From Clostridia bacterium (lineage in GTDB: Bacteria; Bacillota; Clostridia; Oscillospirales; CAG-272), in contig JAFTXX010000014.1 of NCBI GenBank assembly GCA_017461475.1, forward strand, positions 20,779 through 84,778: a DNA stretch of 64,000 nucleotides, read 5' to 3'. The notes beneath the pieces are model-generated. The model searched no databases. It saw only the letters and a program-made list of their open reading frames with translations, and was not told where the DNA came from. Made by a program: the position numbers and the translations under genes. Shown here piece after piece: positions 20,873 through 64,000 of the stretch (its first letter is position 1; each line of letters starts with the position of its first letter).

Positions 20873-21028
20873 ATTTTATCCGACCTTTTTAAAATTATCA
20901 AGTATTATTCTACCATAAAAAAAGAAAAAAATCAAGTGTTTAACACTCTTACATACGATTTTTTTTGAATTTATGAAAAAAATACTTGACAAATGCTATA
21001 AAATGGAGTATAATATCATAGTCGGAGC

Positions 21029-21104
21029 GCTGGTGTAGCACAGTCGGTAGTGCAGCTGATTCGTAATCAGCAGGTCGTGTGTTCGAGTCACATCACCAGC
21101 TCCA
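21029..21104 (+). tRNA. tRNA-Thr(CGT), prophage integration target
   Basis: Cloverleaf: GCTGGTG/CACCAGC acceptor stem, anticodon loop TTCGTAA, GTTCGAG T-loop, encoded CCA. Confidence 0.95.
21060..21104 (+). repeat. att core (attL), 3' half of tRNA-Thr
   Basis: ttcgtaatcagcaggtcgtgtgttcgagtcacatcaccagctcca is also at 61246-61290. Confidence 0.92.
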
Positions 21105-25579: not shown

Positions 25580-26245
25580 TTATTCTATTGGATATTGCCC
25601 TGAGACGACCTTCCCGAGGATGGCTATATGGTCGAGCTGTTCTCCTTCGTATCTCATAGGCTTGAACGTTGGGTTTTCGGGGACGAGGGTGATCACGTTG
25701 TTTTCCTTATCGTAATATACGCGCTTGACGGTTGTTTCGTCCTCTATTCGGATGACGGCTATTTCTCCGTCATCTACCATTGTCTGGCTTTTTACAAACA
25801 GTATGTCTCCGTCGAAGATCCTCGCGTTTATCATACTGTCCCCCTTGGCTCGTAAGCAGAAGTCCGCTTGGATGTCCTCGTCGGCGGATATATATGCCTC
25901 ATAATGTTCGTCAGCATACTTGGGGTCTCCGCAGGCTACCTCGCCCAGCAGGGGGAGCTTTTTTGTTTTTATGGGGAGCATATCTTTGGGAATATCGTCT
26001 GATGCAAAAAGTTGGAGATTGAGCGTGGTTTTTGGGGCGATTTCTTCTTTGCCTAAAAGATAACCAACAGATACTCCAAAATATGCCGCTATTTTTTGAG
26101 CGGTAACGGCAGATACTCCTGAACGCCTACCTTTCTTTAAATCTGTCAGGAGACCTTTGCTGATTCCTATATCAGTGCACATTTTACCGCCTGTTATTCC
26201 TTTACTTTCGCAAAGCGCAACAATATTTTTGTATAAATTACTCAT
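25580..26245 (-). CDS. CI/LexA-like repressor (HTH plus S24 peptidase)
   Basis: N-terminal HTH; VACG autocleavage site, GDSM (Ser) and TVKR (Lys). Confidence 0.93.
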   Translation of the reverse strand: MSNLYKNIVALCESKGITGGKMCTDIGISKGLLTDLKKGRRSGVSAVTAQKIAAYFGVSVGYLLGKEEIAPKTTLNLQLFASDDIPKDMLPIKTKKLPLLGEVACGDPKYADEHYEAYISADEDIQADFCLRAKGDSMINARIFDGDILFVKSQTMVDDGEIAVIRIEDETTVKRVYYDKENNVITLVPENPTFKPMRYEGEQLDHIAILGKVVSGQYPIE

Positions 26246-26409
26246 ACGAGTACCTCCTCGATTGTTCAAAAGTACTAAACTTTTGTATTATTGTATTTTG
26301 GGGCTTGACAAATACTCAAACAAGTACTATAATATAGCCAAGAAGTACTCGAACGAGTATAAATGTTTACTTGTACTATAATTATAGTACATAAAAGAGT
26401 ACTTGTCAA
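26238..26409. promoter_or_regulatory. Genetic switch: face-to-face promoters and TACT-N6-AGTA operators
   Basis: TTGACA-17-TATAAT on + at 26305-26333 and on - at 26409-26381; operators tactcatacgagta, tactcaaacaagta, tactcgaacgagta and tacataaaagagta. Confidence 0.85.
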
Positions 26410-26437
26410 GACTATTTTTGAAAGGAGGCGAATTTCA

Positions 26438-26650
26438 GTGAATTTAAGCAAATATACAGACTTTGGATTGTGCGTAAAAACAAAACTTTTGCAGATCGGC
26501 AAAGACCAAAAGTGGCTTGAAGAGGCTGTCTCGGAAAAGACAGGGTTATTTATAGATAACGGTTATATGTATAAGATACTGACAGGGCAGCGCCGCGCGC
26601 CAAGGATCGTGGCTGCGATTTGCGAGATTTTATCCGTAGAAAGTAATTAG
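26438..26650 (+). CDS. Cro-like small HTH protein
   Basis: GTG start after AAAGGAGG; divergent from cI. Confidence 0.75.
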   Translation: MNLSKYTDFGLCVKTKLLQIGKDQKWLEEAVSEKTGLFIDNGYMYKILTGQRRAPRIVAAICEILSVESN

Positions 26651-40942: not shown

Positions 40943-41923
40943 ATGAAAAATAATTTTGCGCTTGACCTTCAGCTTTTCGCTTTTACCGATGCGCCCGCAT
41001 CGATGACTAAGACTGCAACCGGCGAGATGTCTTCCACTATGAAGACCTTTTACAACAAGAGTCTTCTTGAGAACGCCCGTGAGGAGTCGGTGTTTGACCA
41101 GTTTGCGATGCCCACTCCCATGACCCACGGCAAGACCGCCGAATGGCGCAGATGGAAGACCTTCGCTCCCGCTACCACCCCACTTGAAGAGGGCGTAATT
41201 CCCAACGGTCACACCTTCGGAATGGAGGCTGTTACGGCGGGGCTTTCCCAGCACGGTGATTATACTCCTATATCGGATGTTCTTGAGATGACCGCTTTTG
41301 ATCCCGTTATTTATGGGGCGACTGAGGAGATGGGCGCGGCGGGCGCGGAGACCTCGGATATTCTTATCCGAAACGATCTGCTGACAGGAACAAATCAGAT
41401 CTATGCGGGCGCAAAGTCGAGCAAGAGCAGCCTTGCTGCCGCCGATACCATTACACCCGCGCTGATCAACAAGGCTGTGACCTTCCTCAAGAAGATGCGC
41501 GCGCCTAAGATCAATGGATACTATGTAGCGGTCATTCATCCCTCAGTTGCGGAGGATCTTCGTAACAGTGAGGAATGGAAGGAATTTCACAAGTACAACG
41601 ATACCTCTCCCATCTTCAAGGGAGAGATCGGTGAGCTTCACGGTGTGAAGTTTATCGAGTCTAATTTTGCCAAGGTCGACAGCGGCACGAATATCAAGGT
41701 ATATTCCACTATGATCTTCGGCAAGGATGCCTTCGGTAAGCTTGGTATTACGGGCGGCGAAATGCAGATGATCATACACGGTAAAAATGAGATCGGAGGT
41801 CCTCTCGATCAGTTCTCCACCGTTGGCTACAAGTTTATGCACGGCGCGAGAGTGCTGTATGAGGAAAGACTCATCAACCTTTGGACTGCATCCTCCTATG
41901 GGGATGAGGATGATGTAAACTAA
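40943..41923 (+). CDS. Major capsid protein (N4-gp56-like family) with Prp-cleavable leader
   Basis: N-terminal LDLQLFA; PLEEGVIP, GEIGELHGVKF and PLDQFSTVGYK motifs. Confidence 0.9.
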   Translation: MKNNFALDLQLFAFTDAPASMTKTATGEMSSTMKTFYNKSLLENAREESVFDQFAMPTPMTHGKTAEWRRWKTFAPATTPLEEGVIPNGHTFGMEAVTAGLSQHGDYTPISDVLEMTAFDPVIYGATEEMGAAGAETSDILIRNDLLTGTNQIYAGAKSSKSSLAAADTITPALINKAVTFLKKMRAPKINGYYVAVIHPSVAEDLRNSEEWKEFHKYNDTSPIFKGEIGELHGVKFIESNFAKVDSGTNIKVYSTMIFGKDAFGKLGITGGEMQMIIHGKNEIGGPLDQFSTVGYKFMHGARVLYEERLINLWTASSYGDEDDVN

Positions 41924-42655: not shown

Positions 42656-44737
42656 ATGTACGCTCCGAGATTATATGAAACAGAGGTTGGCAGAGAGACG
42701 GTTCAGGAGTTTCTCGGCTACAACCATAACCTTCGCATAGGCAACGGTGAGTTTTATGATATGAAAAATCTGACGAGCAGGTATTATCCCGTGCTCTCCC
42801 CGAGAGATCGGCGGGGTATCGTGCGGACGGTAGATAACTGCAACGGTCTGCTCGCAAAGGACGAGCTTTGTGTTATTGAGGGGAATACGCTCCGCTACGG
42901 CTCCTTTTCGATGCAGCTTGCCCCTTCGGTGAGCGGCGAGCGGCAGCTCGTATCAATGGGGGCTTATATCTTAGTTTTTCCCGATATGATGTACGTAAAT
43001 ACGTCGGATACTTCGGACCTTGGAAATATATCGGCGGGGAAGTCAGTTTATTCGGCTGTTGAGCTTTCTGTCTGTAACGCCGTGGGTGAGGATATAGGCG
43101 CAATGTATATAACAAAAAACGGGCGCTGCATAGGAGTTGGCGCGAACGCAAGGGAGAAATATCTGGACGAGCTGTATATAGCAGATGAGGAACGGGAATT
43201 TTACTATTTCGGATTCATCGGCAACGGTGTGTCCGGCACACAGATAACATTACCCTTTGGCGGCTTTATGGAAAATACAAGGGTGGCAGATTACGTTATC
43301 GGAGATGAAAGCATCGTGGCTCTCGTACCCGACACAGCAGATTGGAGCGGTAAGCCCTTTCAATGCCTTGCGCCGGGCAAGACTACCGTTACCGCTACAT
43401 TTGAAGATGACGGAAGCTCACAGGTATATACGATAGTTGTACTGAGCATAGACACTCCTCGGGGAGGGGACTACTGGTTAAGATGCGCGGACGATTACGA
43501 AACTGAGGCTTATGTATATTCGGGAGAGAAAGGCGAGTGGGAACAAGTTACCACGTATGTGAAGCTTTCGGTATCGGGAATAGGCGGGCTGTTTTCGGAG
43601 GTTGACAGCTGTAGGTTTTGTATTACCTCGAGCCACTCCGCCTGTAAGAGTCTTATGAAGCTGTATAAGGAGTACACGTACATATCACCAATAAAGTATG
43701 ACACGGATTGGGTGGTCATTCCCGGCAGCTTGTTTATGTGTGACAGGGCAAGTATAACAGGAACGATGACGCTGGACTTTTCTTTGCCCCTTATGGATAT
43801 GGTCTTTGAAAGCGGAAACCGACTGTGGGGCTGTAGGTACGGTAAGAATATTGACGGAAAATTTGTCAACGAGATATACGCGTCGGAGCTTGGAAATTTC
43901 CGCAGCTTTTATTCCTTTCGCGGTATAAGCACTGACAGTTACGCCGTCTCTCTCGGCTCTGACGGAGCCTTTACGGGGGCTGTAAGCTTTCAGGGGAAGC
44001 CTATGTTTTTCAAGAATAACTGCTGTCATACAATTTACGGCGCGTATCCGTCCTCCTATCAGCTTGTAAATAACGGCGACGTGGGGGTAGCGGCGGGCTC
44101 AGGGAAGAGCCTGTGCGTGATAGGAGGTGTTCTTTACTATCACGGCAGAGACGGTGTTTATAGATATAGCGGTGCGGGAAGTGAGATGATCTCGGGAGCT
44201 CTCGGAAAGGGAAACTTTAAAAATGCCGTGGGAGGCTCGTGCGACAGAAAATATTATTTGTCTATGGATGATGCGAATAATGAAGCTGTTCTTTTTGTTT
44301 TCGATACGGTAAACGGAATATGGCATAAGGAGGAGGCTGCCCATATTGAACATTTCGCCGCTTTTAACGGGGATCTGTATTTTATCGGTAACGATCAGCT
44401 GTGTACCATAGGAGGCTCCGCGGGAGAACCTGAGAAGGATATCGAGTGGTTTGCCGAGACGGGACGGATAGGATTTATATATCCCGACAGTCAGTATGTC
44501 GGAAAAATACAACTCAGAATGACCTTGCCTGTGGGATCGAGCGTAAATCTCTACATCGAGTACGATTCGGATGGATATTGGGAAGCTCTCGGCAGTATGG
44601 AGGGGAGAAACTCTGTAAGCTTTTCTATTCCCGTAATGCCTAGCAGATGCGACCATTTTCGGATAAAGCTTTCGGGCATAGGTGAGTGTAAGATATACAG
44701 CATCACCAAGACCTTAGAGGTGGGAGGTGAACTGTAA
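42656..44737 (+). CDS. Putative tail nozzle/stabilisation protein (podovirus-type)
   Basis: 693 aa beta-rich protein in the position of a podovirus tail protein. Confidence 0.6.
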   Translation: MYAPRLYETEVGRETVQEFLGYNHNLRIGNGEFYDMKNLTSRYYPVLSPRDRRGIVRTVDNCNGLLAKDELCVIEGNTLRYGSFSMQLAPSVSGERQLVSMGAYILVFPDMMYVNTSDTSDLGNISAGKSVYSAVELSVCNAVGEDIGAMYITKNGRCIGVGANAREKYLDELYIADEEREFYYFGFIGNGVSGTQITLPFGGFMENTRVADYVIGDESIVALVPDTADWSGKPFQCLAPGKTTVTATFEDDGSSQVYTIVVLSIDTPRGGDYWLRCADDYETEAYVYSGEKGEWEQVTTYVKLSVSGIGGLFSEVDSCRFCITSSHSACKSLMKLYKEYTYISPIKYDTDWVVIPGSLFMCDRASITGTMTLDFSLPLMDMVFESGNRLWGCRYGKNIDGKFVNEIYASELGNFRSFYSFRGISTDSYAVSLGSDGAFTGAVSFQGKPMFFKNNCCHTIYGAYPSSYQLVNNGDVGVAAGSGKSLCVIGGVLYYHGRDGVYRYSGAGSEMISGALGKGNFKNAVGGSCDRKYYLSMDDANNEAVLFVFDTVNGIWHKEEAAHIEHFAAFNGDLYFIGNDQLCTIGGSAGEPEKDIEWFAETGRIGFIYPDSQYVGKIQLRMTLPVGSSVNLYIEYDSDGYWEALGSMEGRNSVSFSIPVMPSRCDHFRIKLSGIGECKIYSITKTLEVGGEL

Positions 44738-45956: not shown

Positions 45957-48900
45957 ATGGCGCAAAGAATGAGTGTAGACGAGGCGTGGAAGCGCACGCA
46001 AAAAAGATATCTTTCCACACAGGCAATGGCGGCAAGCCACAATATGTCTGATTTCGAAAAAAAATACAGCTCTGACTATCTGTCGAGCTGGCGTAGATCG
46101 GGAGAGCTTTCGGATTATTATGCCGCTATCGAGAAGCAGTTGAGCTCCGCGAGGACGCTGAGGGACTATTACGAGCTTTACGGGAACGACGAGCAGAAGG
46201 GGTATATTTCTGCCCTTGATGAGGCGATAGGCGGCTACAGCGGCGTTCTGAATGAGCGCAGTAAGGTGGAGGAGCTTTACGGCGCGTATTCATCGGAGGG
46301 GGCGTGGAAGTCTGCCGTTGCTAAAAGTGAGGCGGATATAGCCGAAAATAACCGGTTGCAGGGCTTGAACATCGAGGAGCTTTCGGCGCAGTCTGCTGAT
46401 CTTGGAGAGCAGATACGAACGCTTAATCAGAAGAAAATACGGACTATAAGAGAAGAGGGGCTCACTCAGGATGAGCGCACGGAGTATGATAACCAAATAA
46501 AAAAATTACAGAGTCAGAAAAAGAATATTGACTCCGATATAGAAAAGGCGAATAAATTGACAAGGCTTGGGGAGCTTGAAGCGGTAGAGAATAACGAGGA
46601 TTTTGAGCTCGCCTCTGCCTTTGATGATAGCGTGCAGAGCAGTACATATCGCATTATAAACGGTCTTTCTCTTTACGACGCGAACGTAAGAGAGGGCAAG
46701 CGCATCGAGGAGGACGGATGGCACTATGATGTGGGTCAGAGCTCCGAGGATGCCATCTTTGCGGAGCATATGACATCCGAGGAAAAGAAGCGGTATAACG
46801 CTCTGTATTATGACGACCCCGCAAAAGCCAAGGAATATCTTGACGCTTTAGACCCCATCATAGCGTCGCGTGCGGCTGCCTCGGCGTATCAATACGGTCG
46901 GGAGCATCCCGTTCTCGGTACATTAGCTTCTGTGTACTCAAACGCCACGGGAGCAGTGACGCAGTTCGGCTCGATGGTGAAGTTTGAGGATGTCGGATAT
47001 AATCAATCCGCTAATTTGTCCACCTCTCTGCGCTCGGGGGTATCGTCAGAGATGAGTCCGCTTGGCAGCTTCCTGTATAACACAGGTGTGTCGGCGGCAG
47101 AATCCTTACTTGCGTCAATGGTACCCTATGCGGGCGAGGCTATGCTTGCGCTGTCCTCGGCGGCGTCGACGCAGAATGATATCCTCAGCAGAGGCGGAAC
47201 GGGCGCTCAGGCGATGATAGGCGGTCTTGCCGCGGGCGTGGCGGAGGCTTTCTTTGAGCACGTCTCTCTGAGCTCTCTCCGCTCAATGCAGCCTACCGAG
47301 ATAGTGTCAAGCTTTAAGAGCTTTATGGGTAACGTAGGTAAGGAGATGCTGACAAACGCCGGCGAGGAGGCGGCAACCGAGTTTGCAAACATAATGACAG
47401 ATACGTTTATTATGGGCGAGCTTTCAAGCTTCAATACACTTGCGGATAAATATGCGGCAAAGGGTATGAGTGAGACCGAGGCCATGTGGAATGCCGCTCT
47501 TGCGCTTGCCGGACAGATAGGCGAGGCGGCGGCATCAGGCGCTGTGATGGGTCTTGGCTTTTCGTCGGTTGGAGGAGGTGTCGGTCTTTCGCAAAACTAT
47601 GCGGCGGGTCAAAGCATCATAAATGGCAAGAACGATTTTTTCGTGGATGATGTTTTAAACGATTCGCAGATCCTTTTCAATGATGAAGCCGTGAAAGCCG
47701 CAAAGGACGAGGATGCTGCCTTGATAAAGCAGGCAAAAAAGCTTTCTCAGAAGGTTGCTGAGAAAAAGGACAGCAGATCTCCCGCCCAGGCGATCCGAGT
47801 TGGCGCGTTGGCAAAAGAGGTTATGAAAGAGGAAGTCAAGCTCGTGATGAAGGAGTTGAACGAGACGGCAACGCGGAATGTAGCAAAGGCGGCACAGACC
47901 GCCGAGGCGGAGGGGAACATGGCAACCGCATCGGGGCAGGGCGCGGAGATAAGGCGGAGTAGCGGTCTCCCGATAGTCAGGGCTGAGGGGCAGGAGCTTT
48001 CGGAGATATTTGTGGAGAGGGACGGGGAGGTTGTTTCTCTTGAGGACGTTTCCGTGGAGGACGTCGATCTGGCTGTTGCGTACTCTCTCGCGGTCACTAC
48101 AGGCTCTGTGGAGGCGGCGAACGCCTTTATAGACGCTTATGCCTCCGAGGAGGAGAAGGCTTCTCCCGTGGCGTTCTGGAGCGCGTGGATGGGTATTATG
48201 ACCGACGGGCAAACTCTTCGCACTACAGAGGAGAATATGCAGAGGGCCTTTGCCGAGTATGGAGACCAGCTCAGCCAAGAGGCAAAGCTTGCGGCGTGGC
48301 TTGCGGGGGTGGAGCTGAAGCAGGCGGAGCGCAAGCGTAAGCTTGAAGCGGCAAACTCTGCGAGAATGGCGAGGGAAACATCTGAAAGCTCTGCTTCTGA
48401 GGTATTTATGTATCGAAAAAACGGCAGCTTCACCGAGGATAAATATTTCAGAACTCAAATGGCAAAGTGGGAGCGGCTGAAACACGGCGGATATATTAAG
48501 GTCGGCGAGCTTTCAGCAGAGAGCCCGTTGTGTCAGGTCGGTATGCCTGTCGGAACGCTTCGGTATGATGTTGATAAGCTCAAAAAGAATATGACCGATC
48601 ACGCTGATTATCTTGATGTAGAGCTTCTCAAGCAGATCCCTGATATTATAGCAGATCCCGTAGCTATTAGCGAATATCGGGAAGGCAACACAATAAGCGT
48701 TTTCGGTGACATTTTTGTGGGAGACTCTCCGATGATGGTCGGAGTTACAGTTTCCAAGGATAGAGCGGGAAATACTATCAGCAAGGTCAGAACATACAAT
48801 ACCCGTCGTGACGTAGGCAAGCTGATAACGGATGATACTGTGCTGTATCTTGATAAAAACAAAAAGAGAACCCGAAAATGGTTCCAAGCCTGTGGGATAC

Positions 48901-51900
48901 AAGTCCCTTTAGGGGGAAACACTTTCGGATTCATCCGTAGTATATCACAATTTAATGACGGTGTCAATACCTTCGGTGAAAAAGGTAAAAAAGAAACCTC
49001 ACAGCTCATTGATGCCAAAAGCACCAATGCAACGGTCAATGCCGATTCTGTGGTGGTTCCTACTGATAGTATCCCCCACCTTTCCGAAAATGTCAAGGGT
49101 TATTTTGACGATTCGGCTTTGAAAAACGTCAGGCTTGACGCGAAGCAAAAGGAATTTGTGGCTTTTGCGCGGTTGTTTTCCGATGTGTTCGGGGTAAACG
49201 TTACCTTTGTTGCCTCGGAGAAGGGAAAGCGTAAGGAGAACGGCTCTTACGACCGTAATACCAATACGATCACACTTGATATATTTTCGGGTATTGATAA
49301 TAACGCGAACTACAATGCGGTACAGTCCGCTTTATCAAATACGCTCTCTCACGAGGTCGTACATAATATGAGTGCTGTTTCCCCCGAATATTATGACGCG
49401 CTGAGTGAGTATGTATTTGAAGCTCTCAAGTCTCAGGGAATGGACATAGAAGAGAGAATACAGTACTACATAGAGAATGCGAGAGCCGAGAACAAGAAGC
49501 TGTCAAGAGAGGATGCCATAGAGGAGATCGTGGCTCACGCTTGCGACGGTATGCTGAGAACCTCTGAGACCGTAAGAGAGTTTATGGAAGGCTTCTACGA
49601 CAAGGACAGTAAGGCGGCGAATAAGTTCAGCAAGTTTGTTAAGGACGTACTGAAGCGGCTGAAGAGTGTCTTTGATACGCTTCTCGGAACAAAGGCATAC
49701 TCACAGGAGGCTCGCGCCATCTATAAGGCGGGAGCGGATGCGGTGGCAGAGATACAGAAGCTTTACGACGAAGGCGTTCTTGCTATGCGCGAGGGGAATG
49801 TGGCGAGAAATTATGAAATTGAGAGCAAGAGTGATAAGAGTGAAGAGACTGTAAAAATGTATCAATCTCGCGAAACTTTGGAACAAGCCGCCGATGAAAT
49901 GGAGAAGATCAGTGCTGAGAAATACTTGCAAGACAAATCAAAATACCCTTTTATTCAGGTTATGGATCACACTCCACAGAAGGTTATTGATTCTATGGAG
50001 GGAGGAAAAAACCGTCGTATTTTGATTCGTCGTGATGCTTTATATCTTGCAATCAGAGAGAACGGTGTGCAAGAGGGGCATTACCATGGACTGGGAGCCG
50101 AGGTGATAAAAAAACTGCCTGAATACTTGGGATCTCCAGACGTTATTCTTTCAACTATTGATAAGGATACAGGCAAGGAAAGTAAGAATCGGCGTATCAT
50201 TTTAACAGGTATTGACGGAGCAAACGGTCAGGGAATCGTATCTGTGGAATTTGAGTCAATGAAGGATTTTGAGGGGCATAATGATTATTTTAATATCATT
50301 ATTACCGTCTTTGATCTGCACAAGAATTACCTTGAACGACTTTTCAAAAAACAAGGCGCGATTATTAAGGAACAAAAAGAGAGCCTTGCGCAAGTGAATC
50401 CTCAACTGTATGAGTGGTTGAGAACTATTAACGCAAAACTCTCTGGTAATAGTATACCCGATTCTGCTCAAAAAGTCAAGACCTACGGTGAAAAAAAGGA
50501 TACAAAAAAAGAAGAATCGGCGCAAGTTAATTCCCAAGTCCAATACGAGGGCATTATTAACGCTAACTCTTCTAACGATAGTATATCACAAAACGATATT
50601 TCTGTCAAGGAGAACCGCAAAAATAATTCTGACTCTTCCGTGATGAAGCAAGAGAGAATAACGGTTGATATGAGTGAAACGGAACGGGCCGAAATATTGA
50701 GAAAGGCAAAGATAAGTCCGCCTGCTATTGAAATATCTGAAAATTTCGACGTGGATTTTAAAGAACTTGAAAAGAGCAATTGGAAAGTAGTAAAAAAACC
50801 TATGCTCGAAAAATTGCGTGAGCTTGGTTTCTTAAAATCGTATCGGAGCGACAAGATAGATGTAGAATTTCATTTTACAGGCGAGGGCTTGCGTAAGAGT
50901 ACAAATTCACAAATCTTTGAGTACGGCGGCAGCTTGGCAGATCTTTCCAAGGTCGTTATGAATATGCAGTCAATACTTGATAGTGCAGTTTTACTTGAAA
51001 TACACTCGGATAAAGCAAAGGGGACACCAAAGGAAAATTCCCGACTTTTGCGAACCTACGTATTGTTAAGCGCATTCAGAGAAGGCGAAACGATTACTCC
51101 CGTACAGTTTGAGGTAAAGCAGTACGTAGATAATGACAATCGCCTGTACCTTGCCGTGGCATTAACAAAAATAGAGACAGATGTCATCAGCGATACGGCT
51201 CCGCAAAAAGCGGAACGGACACGCCTGGTATCTGTCTCTGATATAAGTATACCACAATTGATAGAAAAAATCAACCCCTATGATAAAAATTTCTTCAAGT
51301 ACATTCCCGACGAATTCTTAAACAAGGCACAGCTCGAAGCAAAGCGAGAGGCGCTTTCGATTGAGGCAAAAAAATATGGAAAAAAATCTGACAAATTAAG
51401 CCAGGAGCGCATTTCCACGCCTGAGCCGTATTCGGGGAAAAATTTATATACGGACGGAGACATATACAGTTATGATTTTATGACGGCTTTGGCTCCGATG
51501 GTGGTAAAGACAATGCCTTCGTTAAGCTCTGTAAAAAAAGACGGTAAGGTTTCACAAGCTAAAGCTATTGAAGTCGGACTTAAAAACGCTGAAGGATTGG
51601 GTAGAAGGGTCTCCGAAAATCAATATGCGGTGAAGAACGTTTATACGGGCAGAGAGATCGTTCTCGGTAAAAGCGGATTGGGGCATAGCCTTGACGCTTC
51701 AAGCGTTCATAGACTGCGTACAAATGCAAGGCTTGCCGCTATTGGCGGAGACATAGTACAAAATGCGGTGCCGATAAACGGATTAAAGAAGAAAAATTCT
51801 CAGGCAAACGGAACGTATGCTATGGCTTGTCTTGTAAATGACGGAAACGGTTATGTTGTTGCTATAGTTACTGTCGATGAGTTTTCCTCTAAAGCAATTG

Positions 51901-54900
51901 GTATTGACTTTGTAGATATTGCGCATTCCTTAAACGGAAGATTTTTGGCAAAAAAAGAAGATAGCCGGTCTTCCGCAAGGGAATTGGAGTCAGGACAAAA
52001 ATCCGTCTCCACCACAGCTATCTCTGATATAAGTATATCAGATTTTCTCGAAATTGTCAATAGCACACACAAAAGTATTTTATCTGATGACGTGTTGAAG
52101 CATTTGAAAGAAGTAAGACCGAGCGAAGGATATTATTCTGATCAAGTTTTGTTCCAAGAGCGCATTTCTACGCCTGAGCCCTCGGAGCTTCTCGGGGAGC
52201 TTTTCCGTTCGAAGGAAGCTTACAAGAGCTATGGCAAGTACACCGAGAGTCTGAAGAAGTATCAGGATCTTGCCGTTCGTGTGAGAAATCAAGAGAAGCG
52301 TATCTCCGAGATAGACGCTGAGATAGGCAGTCTGAGGAGCGAAAAGAAGCAGAGCGGCAAGGGCGCGCGAATGGACGAGCTCTACCGTATGCGGAGAACA
52401 GCCGAGGGGAAGATCGACGAATACAAAAAGCGTATGTTCGCTATGGAAGCTCGGGAGCTTAGCGCGGTCGTTGCGGCTGAGACTGACAGGGTGAGAAAAG
52501 AGGTTCAGCTTGCTGAGCGTGAGAAATACGCGAAAAAGAGTAAGGAGAGGACGGAAGGTCTCATACGTAAGGAGACGCGCGCCAAGCTCAGGCGAGTGGT
52601 CAAGGAGCTTAACCGTCGTCTGAACCACGGAACAAAGGAAAAGAACGTAAAGGTCGGTATGCAGGACGTTGTAGGAAGCGCCCTTAAGGCGGCTGAGCTT
52701 TTGTTTGCCGATGATATAACCAACGCTGATATTATTGAATACGGCTTTGATCATCTGAGCGACAACGAAAAAAAGCTTGTAGATGAATACAAGCAGTTGT
52801 TGAAGTCCCGTGCGGTGCTTGAGGAGGAGTTGAGTCCTCAAAAGGTGGTTGTAGAAATTGAAGAAAATTCTGAAAAATATGGTGATGTGCAGAAGGATTT
52901 GTGGATAAATGTGGGAAGCGCTAAAAATGCTGATACAAATCACATTTACGCAATTACAAACAAAAAAGAAGAATTGCCCACCCATTACGGCGTGGGTAGC
53001 CCCACAGAAGCGGGTAACTACCTCCAAAACAATCCTTCTAATGTCATTATACCCCATTCTTCCGAAAAAGTCAATACTTCTTCCGAAAAAAATGCGATAC
53101 AGAAGAAGATAAACGGTATTGACTATCGCCTGAGGAAGCTTGACGAGGCGCTGAGGGACCGTTTGGAGGGTATGCGAAGCTTCTATAATTCGGCTGTCAT
53201 TGACGATGCGCTGGACGAGCTTGCGGCGGCGTATTCCGAGCTGAAAAACTCCAAGGACGACTACATAAGGGGAGCCTACGACGAGCTTGTGGCTGAACGG
53301 CTTGAAGGCGCTAAGGCGGCTCTGAGAGGCGTTACGGTACGCCATATGAGTACTGAGCAACTTCGGGAGCTGTACTCTCTTTACAAGATGGTTCTGACGA
53401 CTGTACGCACGTCTGACAAGCTGTTTACCGAGGGCAAAAACGCAAGTGTAGCTGACGAGGCTGCCACTATTGAAAACGAGCTCTTGTCCGATGGCGAGCC
53501 GAAGGAAAAAAAGCTGAAGCTCTTGCAATATCCTGAGAGCTTTGCTTGGAATATGCTCATACCCGCGTATGCGTTTGACATTATTCGATCACATACGCTG
53601 CGTGCGCTTTACAAAAGGCTTGTATCTGCTGAGGGCGTATGGGGCAAGGATGTGGAAGAGGCGCAAAAATTCAAGGTGGATATGGATAAAAAGTATGGAG
53701 CAAATAAGTGGGATACCGACGAGCAGTTCGTTTTTCACACTCCGAGCGGAAAGGAGGGCTCCGTAAGCTTAAATCAGATAATGTCGATATATGCCTATAC
53801 GCTTCGGGGAAAGCAGGCGACGGATCACCTTGACAGGAGCGGATTTTGTCATTCCAAGTCGATAATCGTTAAGGAATCGAAATGGGTAGGCTTGAGGATA
53901 AAGCGCAGCTACACATGGAATCACTCGGCGGTCTGGCGGCTTTCTCCCGAAATAAGGGAGCAGCTGATATCAAAGCTTTCGGCAGAACAGAAGGCGTATG
54001 TCGAGGAGATGCAGAAATATCTTTCCAAGGATTGCGCTAAAAAGGGAAATGAGGTTTCTCGCAAATTGTACGGTATCGAGATATTCGGGGAGGAATTTTA
54101 TTTTCCGATGCATTCGGCGGAGCAATATATATCTGAAAAGGAAAAAAGCAATCCGGGGGCGGTACCTCGCTTGAAAAATTCGGGATTTACGAAAAAAATA
54201 AGTCCAAATTCGACAAGTCCCTTGGTTCTTGATGGATTTACCGACGTATGGGCAAAGCACTGCGCCGACATGGCTGCTTATCACGCCTTTACTTTGCCTC
54301 TTGAGGATATGGCGAGGGTATTTAATCACAGACGGCGAGGGACGGACGGTGCTGTGGAGGGCTCTGTTCAGGCAACGCTCAGCGGGATCTACGGAGACGC
54401 GGCATCAGCATACGTAAAGCGGCTTATAGATGAGCTGAACGGCGGTGTGAGAGTGGAGACTACTGCGGGATTTATGAACAAATTTATGTCTCTGCACAAG
54501 ATGGGCGCTACGGCTATGTCTCTGTCAACACTTGTGCAACAGCCCACGTCGATCTTTCGGGCTATGGCATATATAAATCCTAGGTATTTTATGACTTATG
54601 CTCAAATGACTCCGAGCAAGCACAGGGCGGAGTGGGAAGAGATAAAAAAATATGCTCCTGTGGCAATACTTAAGGAAATGGGCGGATACGATACGGGCGC
54701 AGGCGCGGCTACTGCCGATTATATCAGATCCAAAAGCTATGAGGGCTTTAAGGAAAAAGCGGCTGCTCTGATAAAGGACAGCGCCTACCGAAATAATGTG
54801 ATGTATGCTTTGCCGTCTCTTGCTGATGAGCTGGCGTGGTGTCATATCTGGGCGGCGGTGAAAAAGGAAATAGCCGATACTACAGAACTTACGGAGGGGA

Positions 54901-55610
54901 GCAATGCGTTTCTTGAAGCCTGTGGAGAGCGCTTTACGGATGTAGTTACCCATACTCAGGTATACGATTCTGTTCTTGCAAGAAGTCCTCTTATGCGATC
55001 TAAAGACCCGACCACTAAGATGCTCACAGCCTTCTCGGCGGAGCCTACTGTAGTTACAAATATGGTAGCCTACGGAATTATTGAGGGTAAGCGGGGAAAT
55101 CACGCCTTTGCCGCACGCATCATAGGCAGTTCTGTTGCCACTATGATAGCTAATGCAGCTGTCGTATCGCTGGCTTATGCTGCAAGAGATGACGATGAGG
55201 ACGAGACATTTACCGAAAAGTATATTGAGGCTCTTACAACCGAGCTTATTGAGGGCTTTAATCCTTTGACCTACATTCCGTTTATCAGGGACATATGGTC
55301 TGTTATGCTCGGATACGACGTGGAGCGTACCGATCTTTCTGTCATAGCCGATCTGTGGCGTTCCTTTGAGGGGATGTTCAGCAAGCGGAAGAGTATGTTT
55401 GATAAATTCACCGATCTTATCGGAGATATTGCTAAGCTTTTTGGCTTGCCCGTTGGCAATCTTATGCGTGAGGCAATGGCTATCTACAATATGGTCAAGC
55501 TGTTGATTGGATCTTTCGAAGGAGAGACGACTGACGGAGAGGGTATTGGTAATGCGCTATTGAAGGCGGCGGAAAACGCTGTGCCATTGATCGATAAGCT
55601 AAACTCTTAA
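45957..55610 (+). CDS. Giant polyvalent virion/ejection protein (3217 aa) with a zincin HExxH segment and several MuF-C/LPD3-like domains
   Basis: HEVVH at 49350-49364; discrete AT-richer domains at about 48410-48860, 49860-50370, 50640-51170 and 51430-51950, plus a remnant at 52835-52960; helical scaffold elsewhere. Confidence 0.8.
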   Translation: MAQRMSVDEAWKRTQKRYLSTQAMAASHNMSDFEKKYSSDYLSSWRRSGELSDYYAAIEKQLSSARTLRDYYELYGNDEQKGYISALDEAIGGYSGVLNERSKVEELYGAYSSEGAWKSAVAKSEADIAENNRLQGLNIEELSAQSADLGEQIRTLNQKKIRTIREEGLTQDERTEYDNQIKKLQSQKKNIDSDIEKANKLTRLGELEAVENNEDFELASAFDDSVQSSTYRIINGLSLYDANVREGKRIEEDGWHYDVGQSSEDAIFAEHMTSEEKKRYNALYYDDPAKAKEYLDALDPIIASRAAASAYQYGREHPVLGTLASVYSNATGAVTQFGSMVKFEDVGYNQSANLSTSLRSGVSSEMSPLGSFLYNTGVSAAESLLASMVPYAGEAMLALSSAASTQNDILSRGGTGAQAMIGGLAAGVAEAFFEHVSLSSLRSMQPTEIVSSFKSFMGNVGKEMLTNAGEEAATEFANIMTDTFIMGELSSFNTLADKYAAKGMSETEAMWNAALALAGQIGEAAASGAVMGLGFSSVGGGVGLSQNYAAGQSIINGKNDFFVDDVLNDSQILFNDEAVKAAKDEDAALIKQAKKLSQKVAEKKDSRSPAQAIRVGALAKEVMKEEVKLVMKELNETATRNVAKAAQTAEAEGNMATASGQGAEIRRSSGLPIVRAEGQELSEIFVERDGEVVSLEDVSVEDVDLAVAYSLAVTTGSVEAANAFIDAYASEEEKASPVAFWSAWMGIMTDGQTLRTTEENMQRAFAEYGDQLSQEAKLAAWLAGVELKQAERKRKLEAANSARMARETSESSASEVFMYRKNGSFTEDKYFRTQMAKWERLKHGGYIKVGELSAESPLCQVGMPVGTLRYDVDKLKKNMTDHADYLDVELLKQIPDIIADPVAISEYREGNTISVFGDIFVGDSPMMVGVTVSKDRAGNTISKVRTYNTRRDVGKLITDDTVLYLDKNKKRTRKWFQACGIQVPLGGNTFGFIRSISQFNDGVNTFGEKGKKETSQLIDAKSTNATVNADSVVVPTDSIPHLSENVKGYFDDSALKNVRLDAKQKEFVAFARLFSDVFGVNVTFVASEKGKRKENGSYDRNTNTITLDIFSGIDNNANYNAVQSALSNTLSHEVVHNMSAVSPEYYDALSEYVFEALKSQGMDIEERIQYYIENARAENKKLSREDAIEEIVAHACDGMLRTSETVREFMEGFYDKDSKAANKFSKFVKDVLKRLKSVFDTLLGTKAYSQEARAIYKAGADAVAEIQKLYDEGVLAMREGNVARNYEIESKSDKSEETVKMYQSRETLEQAADEMEKISAEKYLQDKSKYPFIQVMDHTPQKVIDSMEGGKNRRILIRRDALYLAIRENGVQEGHYHGLGAEVIKKLPEYLGSPDVILSTIDKDTGKESKNRRIILTGIDGANGQGIVSVEFESMKDFEGHNDYFNIIITVFDLHKNYLERLFKKQGAIIKEQKESLAQVNPQLYEWLRTINAKLSGNSIPDSAQKVKTYGEKKDTKKEESAQVNSQVQYEGIINANSSNDSISQNDISVKENRKNNSDSSVMKQERITVDMSETERAEILRKAKISPPAIEISENFDVDFKELEKSNWKVVKKPMLEKLRELGFLKSYRSDKIDVEFHFTGEGLRKSTNSQIFEYGGSLADLSKVVMNMQSILDSAVLLEIHSDKAKGTPKENSRLLRTYVLLSAFREGETITPVQFEVKQYVDNDNRLYLAVALTKIETDVISDTAPQKAERTRLVSVSDISIPQLIEKINPYDKNFFKYIPDEFLNKAQLEAKREALSIEAKKYGKKSDKLSQERISTPEPYSGKNLYTDGDIYSYDFMTALAPMVVKTMPSLSSVKKDGKVSQAKAIEVGLKNAEGLGRRVSENQYAVKNVYTGREIVLGKSGLGHSLDASSVHRLRTNARLAAIGGDIVQNAVPINGLKKKNSQANGTYAMACLVNDGNGYVVAIVTVDEFSSKAIGIDFVDIAHSLNGRFLAKKEDSRSSARELESGQKSVSTTAISDISISDFLEIVNSTHKSILSDDVLKHLKEVRPSEGYYSDQVLFQERISTPEPSELLGELFRSKEAYKSYGKYTESLKKYQDLAVRVRNQEKRISEIDAEIGSLRSEKKQSGKGARMDELYRMRRTAEGKIDEYKKRMFAMEARELSAVVAAETDRVRKEVQLAEREKYAKKSKERTEGLIRKETRAKLRRVVKELNRRLNHGTKEKNVKVGMQDVVGSALKAAELLFADDITNADIIEYGFDHLSDNEKKLVDEYKQLLKSRAVLEEELSPQKVVVEIEENSEKYGDVQKDLWINVGSAKNADTNHIYAITNKKEELPTHYGVGSPTEAGNYLQNNPSNVIIPHSSEKVNTSSEKNAIQKKINGIDYRLRKLDEALRDRLEGMRSFYNSAVIDDALDELAAAYSELKNSKDDYIRGAYDELVAERLEGAKAALRGVTVRHMSTEQLRELYSLYKMVLTTVRTSDKLFTEGKNASVADEAATIENELLSDGEPKEKKLKLLQYPESFAWNMLIPAYAFDIIRSHTLRALYKRLVSAEGVWGKDVEEAQKFKVDMDKKYGANKWDTDEQFVFHTPSGKEGSVSLNQIMSIYAYTLRGKQATDHLDRSGFCHSKSIIVKESKWVGLRIKRSYTWNHSAVWRLSPEIREQLISKLSAEQKAYVEEMQKYLSKDCAKKGNEVSRKLYGIEIFGEEFYFPMHSAEQYISEKEKSNPGAVPRLKNSGFTKKISPNSTSPLVLDGFTDVWAKHCADMAAYHAFTLPLEDMARVFNHRRRGTDGAVEGSVQATLSGIYGDAASAYVKRLIDELNGGVRVETTAGFMNKFMSLHKMGATAMSLSTLVQQPTSIFRAMAYINPRYFMTYAQMTPSKHRAEWEEIKKYAPVAILKEMGGYDTGAGAATADYIRSKSYEGFKEKAAALIKDSAYRNNVMYALPSLADELAWCHIWAAVKKEIADTTELTEGSNAFLEACGERFTDVVTHTQVYDSVLARSPLMRSKDPTTKMLTAFSAEPTVVTNMVAYGIIEGKRGNHAFAARIIGSSVATMIANAAVVSLAYAARDDDEDETFTEKYIEALTTELIEGFNPLTYIPFIRDIWSVMLGYDVERTDLSVIADLWRSFEGMFSKRKSMFDKFTDLIGDIAKLFGLPVGNLMREAMAIYNMVKLLIGSFEGETTDGEGIGNALLKAAENAVPLIDKLNS
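48855..48967 (-). ncRNA. Embedded antisense sRNA cassette 1
   Basis: TTGACA-17-(TGA)TATACT at 48967-48939; terminal stem gaatccgaaa/tttcgggttc; U-tract. Confidence 0.75.
48987..49096 (-). ncRNA. Embedded antisense sRNA cassette 2 (degenerate -10)
   Basis: TTGACA-17-GATACT at 49096-49068; stem aggaaccaccacag/ctgtgaggtttct; U6. Confidence 0.6.
50371..50479 (-). ncRNA. Embedded antisense sRNA cassette 3
   Basis: TTGACT-17-TATACT at 50479-50451; stem agagagttttgcg/cgcaaggctctct; U-tract. Confidence 0.75.
50504..50608 (-). ncRNA. Embedded antisense sRNA cassette 4
   Basis: TTGACA-17-(TGA)TATACT at 50608-50580; stem agaagagttagcg/cgccgattcttct; U7. Confidence 0.78.
51164..51274 (-). ncRNA. Embedded antisense sRNA cassette 5
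   Basis: TTGATT-17-(TGG)TATACT at 51274-51246; perfect 10-bp stem agagacagat/atctgtctct; inner tccgc/gcgga hairpin; U-tract. Confidence 0.75.
51401..51427 (+). repeat. 27-bp direct repeat copy 1 (QERISTPEP)
   Basis: ccaggagcgcatttccacgcctgagcc; second copy at 52154. Confidence 0.85.
51950..52060 (-). ncRNA. Embedded antisense sRNA cassette 6
   Basis: TTGACA-17-(TGA)TATACT at 52060-52032; stem agatagc/gctatct; U7. Confidence 0.75.
52154..52180 (+). repeat. 27-bp direct repeat copy 2 (QERISTPEP)
   Basis: ccaagagcgcatttctacgcctgagcc; 25/27 identical to 51401-51427. Confidence 0.85.
52962..53074 (-). ncRNA. Embedded antisense sRNA cassette 7
   Basis: TTGACT-17-TATAAT at 53074-53046; stem agaaggattg/caattcttct; inner hairpins; U-tract. 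Confidence 0.75.
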
Positions 55611-61290: not shown

Positions 61291-61866
61291 TTGAAAAGTC
61301 TTGAAAGCCTTGATTTTATTAGGTTTTTGGGACTTTTCTTTTTTTTGTCCGTTATCTCTGTTTTTAGGCAAAATTCTTCAAAAATCGCGTCAAATCTTGA
61401 ATGTTGGTAACGCTGTTGGCAACATTTTTACCTCTCTCGATACGCTTAAAACCTTGTAAAATCAAGAGTTTTGACTTCTTTTAACGGTTTATTCATCATT
61501 TTGACATCAATTTTTGCATTTTTATTATATCACAGGTGTCTTTTTTTGTCAAGTATTGGAAGAAAAATATTTATATTTGTCTTTTCATGCCCCTCTTTGG
61601 TCTCTATTTGGGGCATCATCCCATATTTTTCTTTCTATGCTATCCGATTTTTTTAAAGCTATTGGAGAAGCATAAAAATGGAAAAATATCCCATATAGCA
61701 TGCAACGGGCTTAGTGTATAAATACGGCGGGGCTCTTTGCTTTCCGTTCCAACTGCAAACCAAAAAGCGGGGAGCTCATTGCTCTCCGCTTTTTGCTGTT
61801 TTACAGCTTTTTGCTTTTACAGATCATTTATGATCGTTTACAAATTACACTCGTTACTTTTTTCTT

Positions 61867-63003
61867 TTACAGGTCCTTTATGGCGTTCTTAAGCCATTCG
61901 GTATCTGTATGGGTATATGTATTCAGTGTCGTTTCTATCTGTTTATGTCCGATTATATCTTGCAGCGCTTTGGGATCGACGCCTTTCTTTGCGCACATTG
62001 ATGCGAACGTATGGCGGCAGGTATGGGGATTTCGTTTCTTTATCTGCTCCTCCGTATATCCCGCGCTCTCCAGAGCCTTATAGTACACTCTCTTTCTGAA
62101 ATTCTCGCTATTGAATTTTGATCCCGTTGCCGAGGAGTAGAGGTATTCTCCCTCCGAATTGAGAAGTCTCTCGAGGATCATCGCCACCGAGTCGGGGATG
62201 GGGATGACACGGTTTTTTCCTTTTTCGGTCTTATTTCCTCCGTGGAGGCATCCGTCGTAGTAATCGTTTTTTTTCAGGGACAGGAACTCATCTATTCTCA
62301 GCCCCGTATAGCAAAGGAAGAGCACCACGCCTATTCTGAGGTCCTGTGTGGCATCATAATGTTTTCTGAGGGCTTCTATCTCCTCATCACTGAAACGCTC
62401 CTTAGAGGGCGGTTTTTTAGCTGTTACCGAGCAGAATACGGCGTAGTCCTTATCGATCACGTCGTTCTGGACTCCCCACTGGCATATCTTTGAGGCGAGG
62501 AGGGCTATTTTTGAGACGGTCGAGTGGGATTTGCCCTGTTCGACGGCTTTGTTCAATATCTCCTGTATCTGCTGTGTTTTTATATCGCTGAGTCGGGTAT
62601 TCTCGAGGGGGCGCAGAAATCTCCACGCCATCTCATACGTTCCTATCCCTTTGGGTGTCAGTGTGGCGAAGTGTGTCTCGCTCCACATTCTGTACGCCTC
62701 TCCGAAAGTGACTTTAAAAAGCGCTGTGACGTTCCCTTTTATATTGATATTATCGAGCGCTATTTCTGCCTCGGTCTTTGTGGCGTAGGTGCCGTAGGTG
62801 ATACGCTGTCGTTCTCCGTCTCTATCGACGTATATCCTGACGAGGTAGGGTTTTCTTCTTCGTCCCGGGAGCTTGGTGATCGTGCCCATACCGTTGGCTC
62901 GTTTGAGCTTTTTGGGCTTGGGGGTGGACAGCAGCTTTTTACCGCAGTATCTGCAATATACGCTGTCGTCCTCTATTTCGTTTTTACATTTTTTGCAGAT
63001 CAT
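61867..63003 (-). CDS. int: Tyrosine integrase (second copy)
   Basis: Translation identical to 21681-22817. Confidence 0.95.
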   Translation of the reverse strand: MICKKCKNEIEDDSVYCRYCGKKLLSTPKPKKLKRANGMGTITKLPGRRRKPYLVRIYVDRDGERQRITYGTYATKTEAEIALDNINIKGNVTALFKVTFGEAYRMWSETHFATLTPKGIGTYEMAWRFLRPLENTRLSDIKTQQIQEILNKAVEQGKSHSTVSKIALLASKICQWGVQNDVIDKDYAVFCSVTAKKPPSKERFSDEEIEALRKHYDATQDLRIGVVLFLCYTGLRIDEFLSLKKNDYYDGCLHGGNKTEKGKNRVIPIPDSVAMILERLLNSEGEYLYSSATGSKFNSENFRKRVYYKALESAGYTEEQIKKRNPHTCRHTFASMCAKKGVDPKALQDIIGHKQIETTLNTYTHTDTEWLKNAIKDL

Positions 63004-63029
63004 GGCGGGGAGCTCCTTTCAGAAATTTG

Positions 63030-63506
63030 TTAATAGTCGAAAAACAACGACGCGATTAACAGTAATTGTAATAAAAACTGATAAATTGGCAGACATGCAG
63101 AGGCTCGAAGCACCGGGGAATATGCGTTCTTCAAACTGCTCGAATCAAGGGATTTATAAAATGAAATTCTTTTTATGAATACAAAAATAGTTAGCATTAA
63201 AAAGAAAACGTGTATCGAGGTTAGCGCTATTGCAAAACCATAAAGGTCGTTATAGCACAGAAAATACAAAATAATGGATAAAATAGTAAAGCCTACAAAC
63301 TTTGTAATTAAGCTGGCGGTGTAGTTAAAAAAATTATTTGATATCTCTAGCAGTCGTCCGTAAAAAACATTATGAGTTTGTACTATTTGGATATTCAGTG
63401 CTGCAATGGGATCTGAGCAGTAAGCCTTTTGGAATATTATAACGTTCCTTATCCAAAATATAGCTAACAACACGATGGCGATTGGGATACATACAAGTAG
63501 ATTCAT
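63030..63506 (-). CDS. Hypothetical membrane protein (second copy)
   Basis: Translation identical to 22844-23320. Confidence 0.7.
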   Translation of the reverse strand: MNLLVCIPIAIVLLAIFWIRNVIIFQKAYCSDPIAALNIQIVQTHNVFYGRLLEISNNFFNYTASLITKFVGFTILSIILYFLCYNDLYGFAIALTSIHVFFLMLTIFVFIKRISFYKSLDSSSLKNAYSPVLRASACLPIYQFLLQLLLIASLFFDY

Positions 63507-63776
63507 AATTAAACCTCCAAAGTTTCTATTTTTTGACAGTCTAATTATACCACACTTTTGGGAATAAATAAAGTCGGTTGTGGGAATTTCTCAAAATTTT
63601 TTACGATTTTACATATTTTTACGTTAATATTCGACAATATTCGACAGAACGTACTACTTACTAATAATTGTATCGATTATATATCCGTTGAGAAACAGCA
63701 GAGTTTGTTTTTTTCTTAAAACAGATTGACTATTTTTGGGTTTTGTTGTATAATGTAAGGGGAGGAGGTAATATTT

Positions 63777-64000
63777 ATGGTTAAAAGTGAAATAATCGAA
63801 AAGGCAAAAGAATTTTGTGAAGAACATAATATCAACTCTTATCCGGTAAAAATAGTTGATCTCTGCTCCAAATACGGCATTAGCGTTTTTGAGGAATATT
63901 TACCTGATGACGTATCGGGTATTATTGCCGTGCGGGATGAAATCTTTGATGATTTTAATACGAACAGGTTAATTGTTGTGAATTTATCCGACAGCGCGAG
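63777..64000 (+). CDS. ImmA/IrrE peptidase, 5' part (second copy, truncated by the window)
   Basis: Matches the start of 23591-24109. Confidence 0.85.
   Translation, partial: MVKSEIIEKAKEFCEEHNINSYPVKIVDLCSKYGISVFEEYLPDDVSGIIAVRDEIFDDFNTNRLIVVNLSDSA

Follow-up and report, generated by a model that had tools for sequence, protein, structure and literature searches.

Short antisense RNAs that silence a harmful or dosage-sensitive gene, such as RNAI, CopA, Sok and RatA/SR4, are structured molecules of 60-100 nucleotides (nt) that are made from strong constitutive promoters and carry a terminator. In type I toxin-antitoxin systems, the toxin is a small membrane peptide and the antitoxin RNA usually overlaps an untranslated region or the end of the gene. 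Temperate phages also encode antisense RNAs. The OOP RNA of lambda (77 nt) acts in cis: overlapping a coding region at its 3' end, it causes RNase III-dependent decay of the cII messenger RNA (mRNA). The sar RNA of P22 (68/69 nt) is another classical short phage antisense RNA (PMC12197685). The Salmonella prophage BTP1 specifies STnc6030, which is antisense to the DNA-injection and tailspike genes, is highly expressed in lysogens and brings about sequence-specific superinfection exclusion, for which pairing with the sense mRNA has been proposed (PMC7067206, Owen et al. 2020). Here, seven putative antisense small-RNA units, called cassettes, are described inside a giant polyvalent-type virion protein gene of a prophage in a Clostridia bacterium. 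The stretch analyzed, called the window, comprises 64,000 nt (GenBank assembly GCA_017461475.1, contig JAFTXX010000014.1, positions 20,779 to 84,778).

The cassettes resemble OOP and sar in being predicted short phage cis-antisense RNAs, each equipped with a promoter and ending in a hairpin and U-run. Whereas OOP and sar are present as one RNA per phage, in a regulatory region, and serve lysis-lysogeny control, the cassettes are multiple and are contained in the gene of a virion protein; for OOP and sar, the source passages describe no conserved in-frame co-coding of the promoter. With STnc6030 they share the prophage origin and the antisense position inside late structural genes. STnc6030, however, is a single transcript of about 500-786 nt that was shown experimentally in an enterobacterial host (PMC7067206), whereas the cassettes number seven per gene, have a predicted length of about 70-80 nt, carry their own terminator, occupy domain linkers and keep a fixed codon frame. 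Compared with plasmid countertranscripts and type I antitoxins, the target differs, being a 9.6-kb gene that would be met in seven internal linkers. A type I toxin-antitoxin system was considered and rejected, since the overlapped gene is a 3217-amino-acid (aa) open reading frame (ORF) and not a small toxic peptide gene. What appears new relative to the known phage cis-antisense RNAs is the modular, in-frame, multi-copy design. There is, judging from sequence, somewhat better than an even chance that the seven cassettes are sigma-A-driven cis-antisense small RNAs (sRNAs) which silence the polyvalent gene in the lysogen, exclude related phages, or do both.

The gene and the cassettes are listed below. 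Fold z-scores are those of the minus-strand RNA relative to 150 synonymous recodings of the same 26 codons per cassette.

45957..55610, plus strand: giant polyvalent-type virion protein gene, 3217 aa (ORF call, Pfam, PHROG, C-terminal homology).
48860..48967, minus strand: cassette 1; promoter 48967-48939, TTGACA-17-TATACT with extended TG; hairpin RNA 48932-48868 (65 nt); U-run 48867-48860; z -4.9; begins right at the end of MuF_C.
48984..49096, minus strand: cassette 2; promoter 49096-49068, TTGACA-17-GATACT; hairpin RNA 49061-48992 (70 nt); U-run 48991-48984; z -3.0; has an orthologue in the related locus L030.
50370..50479, minus strand: cassette 3; promoter 50479-50451, TTGACT-17-TATACT; hairpin RNA 50444-50378 (67 nt); U-run 50377-50370; z -4.0; follows a sub-threshold MuF_C/PBECR2-like domain.
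50502..50608, minus strand: cassette 4; promoter 50608-50580, TTGACA-17-TATACT with extended TG; hairpin RNA 50573-50510 (64 nt); U-run 50509-50502; z -3.0.
51165..51274, minus strand: cassette 5; promoter 51274-51246, TTGATT-17-TATACT with extended TG; hairpin RNA 51239-51173 (67 nt); U-run 51172-51165; z -3.7; follows a sub-threshold LPD3 domain.
51950..52060, minus strand: cassette 6; promoter 52060-52032, TTGACA-17-TATACT with extended TG; hairpin RNA 52024-51958 (67 nt); U-run 51957-51950; z -2.3; follows a second sub-threshold LPD3 domain.
52959..53074, minus strand: cassette 7; promoter 53074-53046, TTGACT-17-TATAAT; hairpin RNA 53039-52967 (73 nt); U-run 52966-52959; z -2.6; lies just before the conserved C-terminal domain.

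The original prediction, made from the letters of the window, had placed seven minus-strand promoters in this gene, and all were found at the coordinates and with the hexamers claimed, including a spacer of exactly 17 bp in all seven and an extended TG in four. The -35 element is TTGACA in four sites, TTGACT in two and TTGATT in one, and the -10 element TATACT in five, TATAAT in one and GATACT in one, so that 9-11 of the 12 hexamer positions agree with the sigma-A consensus and all seven -10 elements keep the A at position 2 and the T at position 6 that are invariant in it. The pattern TTGAYW-N17-KATAMT is present 18 times in the window, where dinucleotide shuffles give an expectation of 0.17. 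Seven of these matches lie inside the 3217-aa ORF, all antisense; the other 11 resemble ordinary promoters, of which the host provides an example in the TTGACA-17-TATAAT sequence located 15 nt upstream of a tRNA-Thr gene. An excess over codon-shuffled sequence, on which the prediction had been made to depend, was borne out: in 500 synonymous-codon permutations of the giant ORF, which preserve both the protein and its codon usage, 0.18 sites were expected and at most two obtained, against seven observed. All seven sites are read in a single codon frame as [S/I]-I-[S/P]-x5-[V/I]-[K/N], coded AGT ATA ... GTC AA, with codons that are rare in the gene (AGT makes up 14% of its Ser codons, GTC 20% of its Val codons). 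In the sense direction the promoter thus becomes Ser-Ile-Ser/Pro...Val-Asn/Lys and the U-run Lys-Lys-Glu/Arg, all plausible linker residues. Ordinary promoters translated in other frames give Tyr/Cys-rich peptides, which may be why the cassettes keep to one frame.

Downstream of each -10, the two ends of a segment had been said to pair and to be followed by a U-tract. This is the case in all seven cassettes: the hairpins begin 6-7 nt past the -10 and measure 64-73 nt, and the length of 70-85 nt given earlier corresponds to the hairpin plus its U-run. An outer stem of 8-17 pairs joins the first and last bases of each predicted RNA, such that AGAA, AGAG or GAAU at the start pairs with the end (UUCU or CUCU in the case of AGAA and AGAG), and a U-run with at least six U in seven follows directly. 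The claim that the structure belongs to the minus strand also held, as the minimum free energy is lower on the minus strand in six of the seven cassettes and the z-score stronger on that strand in all seven (range -2.3 to -4.9). A stable hairpin followed by a U-run, the hallmark of an intrinsic terminator, is thus present in 7/7, in the atypical form of a 64-73 nt multi-branch hairpin. By sequence, the cassettes have the attributes of cis-antisense sRNAs, namely a promoter and terminator of their own, a position opposite a coding gene, a length of 50-150 nt and a structure. The primary sequences of the seven RNAs are hardly more similar to one another than shuffled sequences are (mean pairwise identity 0.56 versus 0.53), visible relatedness being limited to cassettes 3 and 4 (0.69). 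When the 2.06-Mb host assembly was scanned for the full combination (17-bp spacer, start 6-7 nt after the -10, AGA or GA start, closed hairpin of 64-73 nt, U-run), it was found only in the giant gene, in both of the tandem copies described below. A search of Rfam gave no match at E <= 5 in the region 48500-53300, and at the gathering score only the tRNA was recovered from the whole window.

Relatives of the gene were fetched from genomes of the same order by protein similarity. In these first relatives the motif is always coded GTC AA, mostly with AGT ATA TCA CA, and the same promoter-hairpin-U-run architecture recurs with unrelated stem sequences. A larger sample of 80 loci was then assembled from public genome contigs through protein similarity of the C-terminal domain; most come from gut or rumen metagenome-assembled genomes labelled Clostridia, Oscillospiraceae, Acutalibacteraceae, Faecousia or Ruminococcus. 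A loose descriptor applied to the 80 giant frames (201,153 aa) yielded 111 antisense cassettes versus 8 in the sense orientation, with at least one cassette in 60 of the 80 genes. When a strict promoter was demanded (at least 10 of 12 hexamer positions, spacer 17), 105 antisense sites were counted versus 29.8 +/- 5.0 under synonymous permutation, so that the excess predicted for homologues is present as well. The same codon frame is used by 97 of these 105. Strict promoter, hairpin and U-run together occur 64 times antisense and never in the sense orientation, with a null mean of 0.86. The units are also concentrated in the gene itself, with 64 in 603 kb of giant ORF versus 7 in 574 kb of flanks. 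Cassette-like units outside the longest open frame of their locus were seen in L090 (minus strand, around 343) and L113 (minus strand, around 7761), where they probably belong to an upstream portion of the giant gene that has been split or truncated.

The promoter likeness extends to positions that played no part in choosing the sites. At 92 sites of the relatives, selected solely by TTGAC plus a downstream hairpin/U-run, the -10 profile is T.83 A.83 T.59 A.72 C.51 T.85, the extended-TG positions hold G at.73 and T at.55, and a T stands at.88 four bases further upstream. Extension of the -10 element by TRTG is part of the Gram-positive promoter consensus. At the expected +1 (7 to 10 bases after the -10) an AGAA start is seen, whereas 705 TTGAC sites without a hairpin have a flat profile. 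Four variants with a spacer of 18 (L081@1412, L093@581, L098@187 and L143@1670) keep TTGACT in another frame and read ..KSQ.. in place of ..KVN..; as the hexamer is kept while the peptide changes, selection acts on the DNA or RNA and not on the peptide alone. A different departure was noted in L130, where TTGCTA replaces TTGACA as the -35 and four cassettes (residues 1494, 1719, 1933 and 2121) share the identical promoter peptide SISNNSENSNEK; the linker unit seems to have been duplicated internally in recent times.

Folding was examined at 97 sites selected by promoter. On the minus strand, the downstream 78 nt have a folding energy of -25.8 kcal/mol and a mean z-score of -2.25 relative to synonymous recoding, and this strand is the more stable in 80 of the 97. 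Random sites in the same genes reach -14.3 kcal/mol and a z-score of -0.04, and favor the minus strand in 31 of 97 (Mann-Whitney p 2e-16). For covariation, the 14 cassettes with a 65-nt hairpin among 63 high-confidence ones were combined with cassette 1 of the window; MAFFT misaligned five of these 15 equal-length sequences, which were dropped, and the remaining ten were folded with RNAalifold. A 17-pair outer helix was obtained, with compensatory changes in 17 of 20 pairs. In the alignment, 84.5% of cells are paired, versus 61.5% after shuffling (a level that 0 of 500 shuffles reach) and 41-56% with a slid partner, which shows for the predicted helices that the pairing partner is specific to each cassette. 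Conservation of spacing, start point, closing stem and U-run in homologues, which the prediction had made its test, is therefore found, and the changes in the stem are compensatory.

Other routes to relatives were less productive. A pattern scan of 401 genomes of the same order matched 113, mostly at ordinary intergenic promoters, so that the tally cannot be used as a prevalence; among 30 loci fetched from that scan, cassettes in long antisense frames occurred only in L036, L039, L049, L054 and the window's own locus. A pattern scan of IMG/VR contigs gave 82 matches, three of which (L203, L206 and L221) are cassettes in giant ORFs. The central 714 aa of the giant protein had no relative in the viral contig collection and one weak match in the phage collection. 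In the latter, the gene family was not found in any cultured phage, and the C-terminal domain matched one uncultured fecal record. Comparison of the giant gene across genomes by blastn gave few matches, with islands at cassettes 1-2, at cassette 6 and in the C-terminal domain, and was indecisive.

All seven cassettes are located in the part of the protein that varies. Relative to its homologues, the giant protein has a conserved N-terminal part, a variable middle and a conserved C-terminal region of about 800 aa, the C-terminal domain being 28-44% identical to that of relatives. Cassettes 1-2 and 3-4 form tandem pairs, exactly 129 nt apart and without an intervening domain, and similar pairs exist in relatives. 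Behind MuF_C-type domains a peptide YLDxxKxRTxxW[FL]QxxG[IL]QxP is conserved (window 48843-48935; L068, L086, L070, L090 and L135). In the cassette RNA lying over this peptide, an inner hairpin resembling GGGG-AAUUGUA-CCCC is kept in many phages, and nucleotide identity over the stretch is about 85% among phages that share only about 40% protein identity in the C-terminal domain.

The gene had been called one for a polyvalent protein, a description that stands in part. Pfam places MuF_C at aa 878-971 with 57.8 bits, above the cut-off of 27.6, and the gene sits in the head/internal-virion-protein module of a temperate phage; the second MuF_C/PBECR2-like match and the two LPD3 matches in the middle of the protein are all sub-threshold (17-23 bits). 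The rest of the protein matches no Pfam family, an HEVVH motif of the HExxH type is visible in its translation, and phrog_22978 (3513 positions, function unassigned) matches it over the N-terminal, middle and C-terminal parts. Giant size, multidomain layout, MuF_C, the sub-threshold LPD3-like and PBECR2-like pieces, HExxH and the position in a head/internal-virion module fit the polyvalent proteins of phages and conjugative elements described by Iyer et al. (2017; PMC5512222). In the available text of that paper the words linker, promoter and small RNA each have no occurrence. The protein would be delivered by the virion.

40943-41923: major head protein, temperate-phage neighbor of the giant gene.
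42656-44737: internal virion protein family, temperate-phage neighbor of the giant gene.
21681-22817, minus strand: integrase, with a second copy at 61867-63003.

An embedded antisense sRNA gene, as a reading of the cassettes, is supported at the sequence level in that it agrees with every computed test. Each cassette would be a self-contained unit in which a near-consensus promoter for the host sigma-A directs transcription from a purine about 7 nt downstream, giving an RNA of 64-73 nt. The whole transcript would fold into one closed hairpin ending in the U-run and so act as its own intrinsic terminator. Such units would have been written into inter-domain linkers because only there does the protein tolerate three simultaneous constraints, and in the shared frame the promoter would be read as innocuous linker residues and the U-run as Lys-Lys-Glu. 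As the promoters do not depend on a phage factor, the RNAs should be constitutive in the lysogen. The absence of conservation between cassettes beyond the signals and the complementarity to the polyvalent mRNA favors a role as cis-antisense RNAs. Being perfectly complementary, they could pair with that mRNA at seven places and lead to its cleavage or decay. Leaky expression of a multi-effector gene might thereby be silenced during lysogeny; in addition or instead, the same mRNA of superinfecting phages with shared linker modules might be attacked, which would amount to RNA-based superinfection exclusion. Targeting across phages is possible, as 35 of the 63 high-confidence cassettes lie mostly inside a blastn match to a non-identical giant gene.

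A number of points weigh against this interpretation. The bases joined by the closing helix are about 65 nt from each other, and the foot of this helix is rich in A/U, which makes the efficiency of termination uncertain. With the descriptor used, 20 of the 80 homologous genes have no cassette, which makes the units non-obligatory, and the 80 homologues are related to one another and hence not independent. Promoter-like sites in the sense orientation of the giant genes are in mild excess as well (64 versus 44.2 +/- 6.3 in the null), none of them with a hairpin; this may reflect the A/T-rich composition of the linkers. The cassettes used for covariation had been preselected for at least seven outer pairs and only 10 of 15 were kept, which makes the first pairs partly circular, and the unbiased evidence for the fold is therefore the folding test at 97 sites. 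In an all-against-all blastn, 56% of cassette bases were matched versus 35% elsewhere, a moderate enrichment that lends weak support to targeting across phages. Lastly, an induced prophage would have to escape its own antisense RNAs, the same unexplained puzzle as is posed by STnc6030.

The same units may be read in several other ways. Each protein module could carry its own phase-compatible unit, so that the RNAs of a lysogen would constitute immunity against phages sharing a module, while the joints would favor module exchange. The target would then be the anti-defence or ejection gene of an incoming phage, in prophages of the gut Oscillospirales type, and the arms race of domain shuffling would be mirrored by one of linker RNAs; this reading as a whole is judged unlikely. 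Somewhat less credit is given to the possibility that the units are real and their RNAs act in trans or as decoys, either binding or titrating some factor of the host or phage, for example an RNase, a sensor of a defence system or, as in type III antitoxins, a domain of the polyvalent protein, or targeting host mRNAs through their variable loops. The closed panhandle without a free 5' end predicts stable RNAs, RNase-like folds are present among the neighboring domains (PBECR2, sub-threshold), and seven differing interiors can be read as a panel. The prediction had indeed spoken of a panel of structured RNAs, a description that fits the set; action in trans is doubtful, since only the promoter, the AGAA start and the U-run are common to the cassettes and their interiors follow the protein code. 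Neither a class-wide seed nor a protein-binding motif is visible, nor was any Rfam family matched. An equally small probability is assigned to the DNA elements, rather than the RNA, being what matters, either as strong antisense promoters with an immediate terminator that form polymerase roadblocks and dampen sense transcription by "sitting-duck" interference, or as phase-compatible joints for the shuffling of modules. The single codon phase at 97 of 105 sites means that recombination between any two cassettes would preserve the frame, the cassettes coincide exactly with domain ends and domain shuffling is known in this protein family (PMC5512222), antisense transcription would be confined by the immediate terminator, and cassettes show some enrichment of nucleotide matches between phages. 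The roughly 12-20 conserved bases per cassette are, however, very little homology for recombination, and a strand-specific fold with compensatory changes exceeds the obvious needs of a roadblock terminator.

Rickettsia palindromic elements are hairpin-forming palindromes of about 100 nt that are translated within host proteins; their copies are similar to each other and lack a promoter-terminator design. That the cassettes are selfish in-frame miniature elements of this kind, tolerated in linkers and without function for the phage, is regarded as very improbable. They are self-contained, form tandem pairs with no domain between them, are present in 60 and absent from 20 of the 80 homologues, and have a few look-alikes outside the giant ORF. 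Yet the copies share functional motifs only, with no nucleotide similarity beyond these (0.56 versus 0.53), unlike repeats of the type of miniature inverted-repeat transposable elements; terminal repeats or target duplications were not seen, several cassette RNAs overlap conserved protein motifs such as YLDxxKxRTxxW after MuF_C, and within the host genome the class is confined to the giant gene. Two readings that place the signal in the sense mRNA or its product are scarcely credible. A -1 frameshift or ribosome-pausing site at domain borders, with an incidental likeness to promoters, would agree with the sense order of an A-run followed by a hairpin and with the in-frame A_AAA_AAA heptamer in cassettes 4 and 6. 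It leaves the sigma-A profile with its fixed 17-bp spacing unaccounted for, 80 of 97 sites have the more stable fold on the minus strand, and A-runs occur in phases 16/6/16. As a general feature, programmed -1 frameshifting was rejected, a canonical in-frame X_XXY_YYZ heptamer being present in only 2 of the 7 cassettes of the window and in 21 of the 63 high-confidence ones of the relatives. The linker peptide SI[SP]x5V[NK] might likewise be the sole object of selection, as a protease site or docking motif, with the nucleic-acid features as by-products of inherited codons. The motif is always in frame, its residue changes are conservative (S/T, I/V), and the peptidase domains found in polyvalent proteins have a proposed role in processing these proteins (PMC5512222), HEVVH being present here. 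This explanation fails the synonymous-permutation nulls by a wide margin, the Ser and Val codons of the motif are fixed against usage, and compensatory stem changes and an adjacent U-run are beyond the reach of selection on a peptide; permutation nulls, spacer-18 variants and fold tests together largely refute it.

Full-text literature searches covering polyvalent/MuF genes, prophage late genes and Oscillospiraceae returned no description of such antisense or small-RNA units. A survey of structured RNAs in human microbiomes was restricted to regions that Prodigal called intergenic (PMC8040213), and the literature negative is limited in that the supplementary candidates of this survey which may overlap coding regions might include the motif. 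If the cassettes are indeed embedded antisense sRNA genes, surveys confined to intergenic DNA, of which this one is an example, may miss whole classes of RNA. An RNA layer would be added to the polyvalent proteins, which have previously been analyzed only as mosaics of protein domains, and Firmicutes-type phages would provide a modular, multi-copy version of the antisense superinfection exclusion or late-gene silencing that is known from single cases such as STnc6030 and OOP. Should the RNAs be transcribed, the units would represent natural triple coding, in which the same bases serve as a protein linker, as a complete promoter and, on the opposite strand, as a structured RNA with its terminator, up to seven times per gene and conserved across many uncultured gut phages. 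As compact natural promoter-RNA-terminator parts that tolerate translation, they would also be of practical interest for design.

The prophage itself is duplicated exactly, as two 40,186-bp units in tandem, with an identity of 1.0 at an offset of 40,186 bp throughout. The copies occupy 21105-61290 and 61291-64000 of the window, and on the contig the run extends from 41,883 to the end at 122,254; it begins directly after a tRNA and reaches the contig end, and the second copy of the giant gene lies outside the window. This could be a true tandem lysogen, or replicating or circular phage DNA that the assembler joined to the integration site. The tRNA-Thr (CGT) gene at 21029-21104 (plus strand), with its own TTGACA-17-TATAAT promoter at 20986-21014, adjoins the repeat unit and the integrase gene lies just inside, which suggests integration at the 3' end of the tRNA-Thr gene. 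Two strong consensus promoters, at 26305-26333 (plus strand) and 26381-26409 (minus strand), face one another about 50 bp apart, with minus-strand ORFs on the left (25580-26269) and plus-strand ORFs on the right (26363-26650); the pair is possibly part of the phage immunity switch.

Some further RNA-like elements, outside the giant gene, were met in the scans. A recurrent intergenic promoter with a small hairpin RNA, unrelated to the cassettes, was found in L042 (G242:C1) with matches in G156, G047, G315 and G129; in these several genomes of the same order the RNA starts with CAGAGUG... and has the core ACGAAGGGG.ACACCACC..GGGU. A multi-copy element with a conserved TTGACA-17-TACACT promoter and a short terminator hairpin is present in G173 (C9, twice in C11, and C12) and at G108:C37 (loci L034 and L035); its four copies in one genome are partly antisense to an open frame of about 100 aa. 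At 51720-51783 of contig C58, in the host chromosome, each strand has a near-perfect promoter with a long perfect hairpin and a U-run downstream of it; the arrangement might represent a pair of small RNAs or a locus resembling a type I toxin-antitoxin system.

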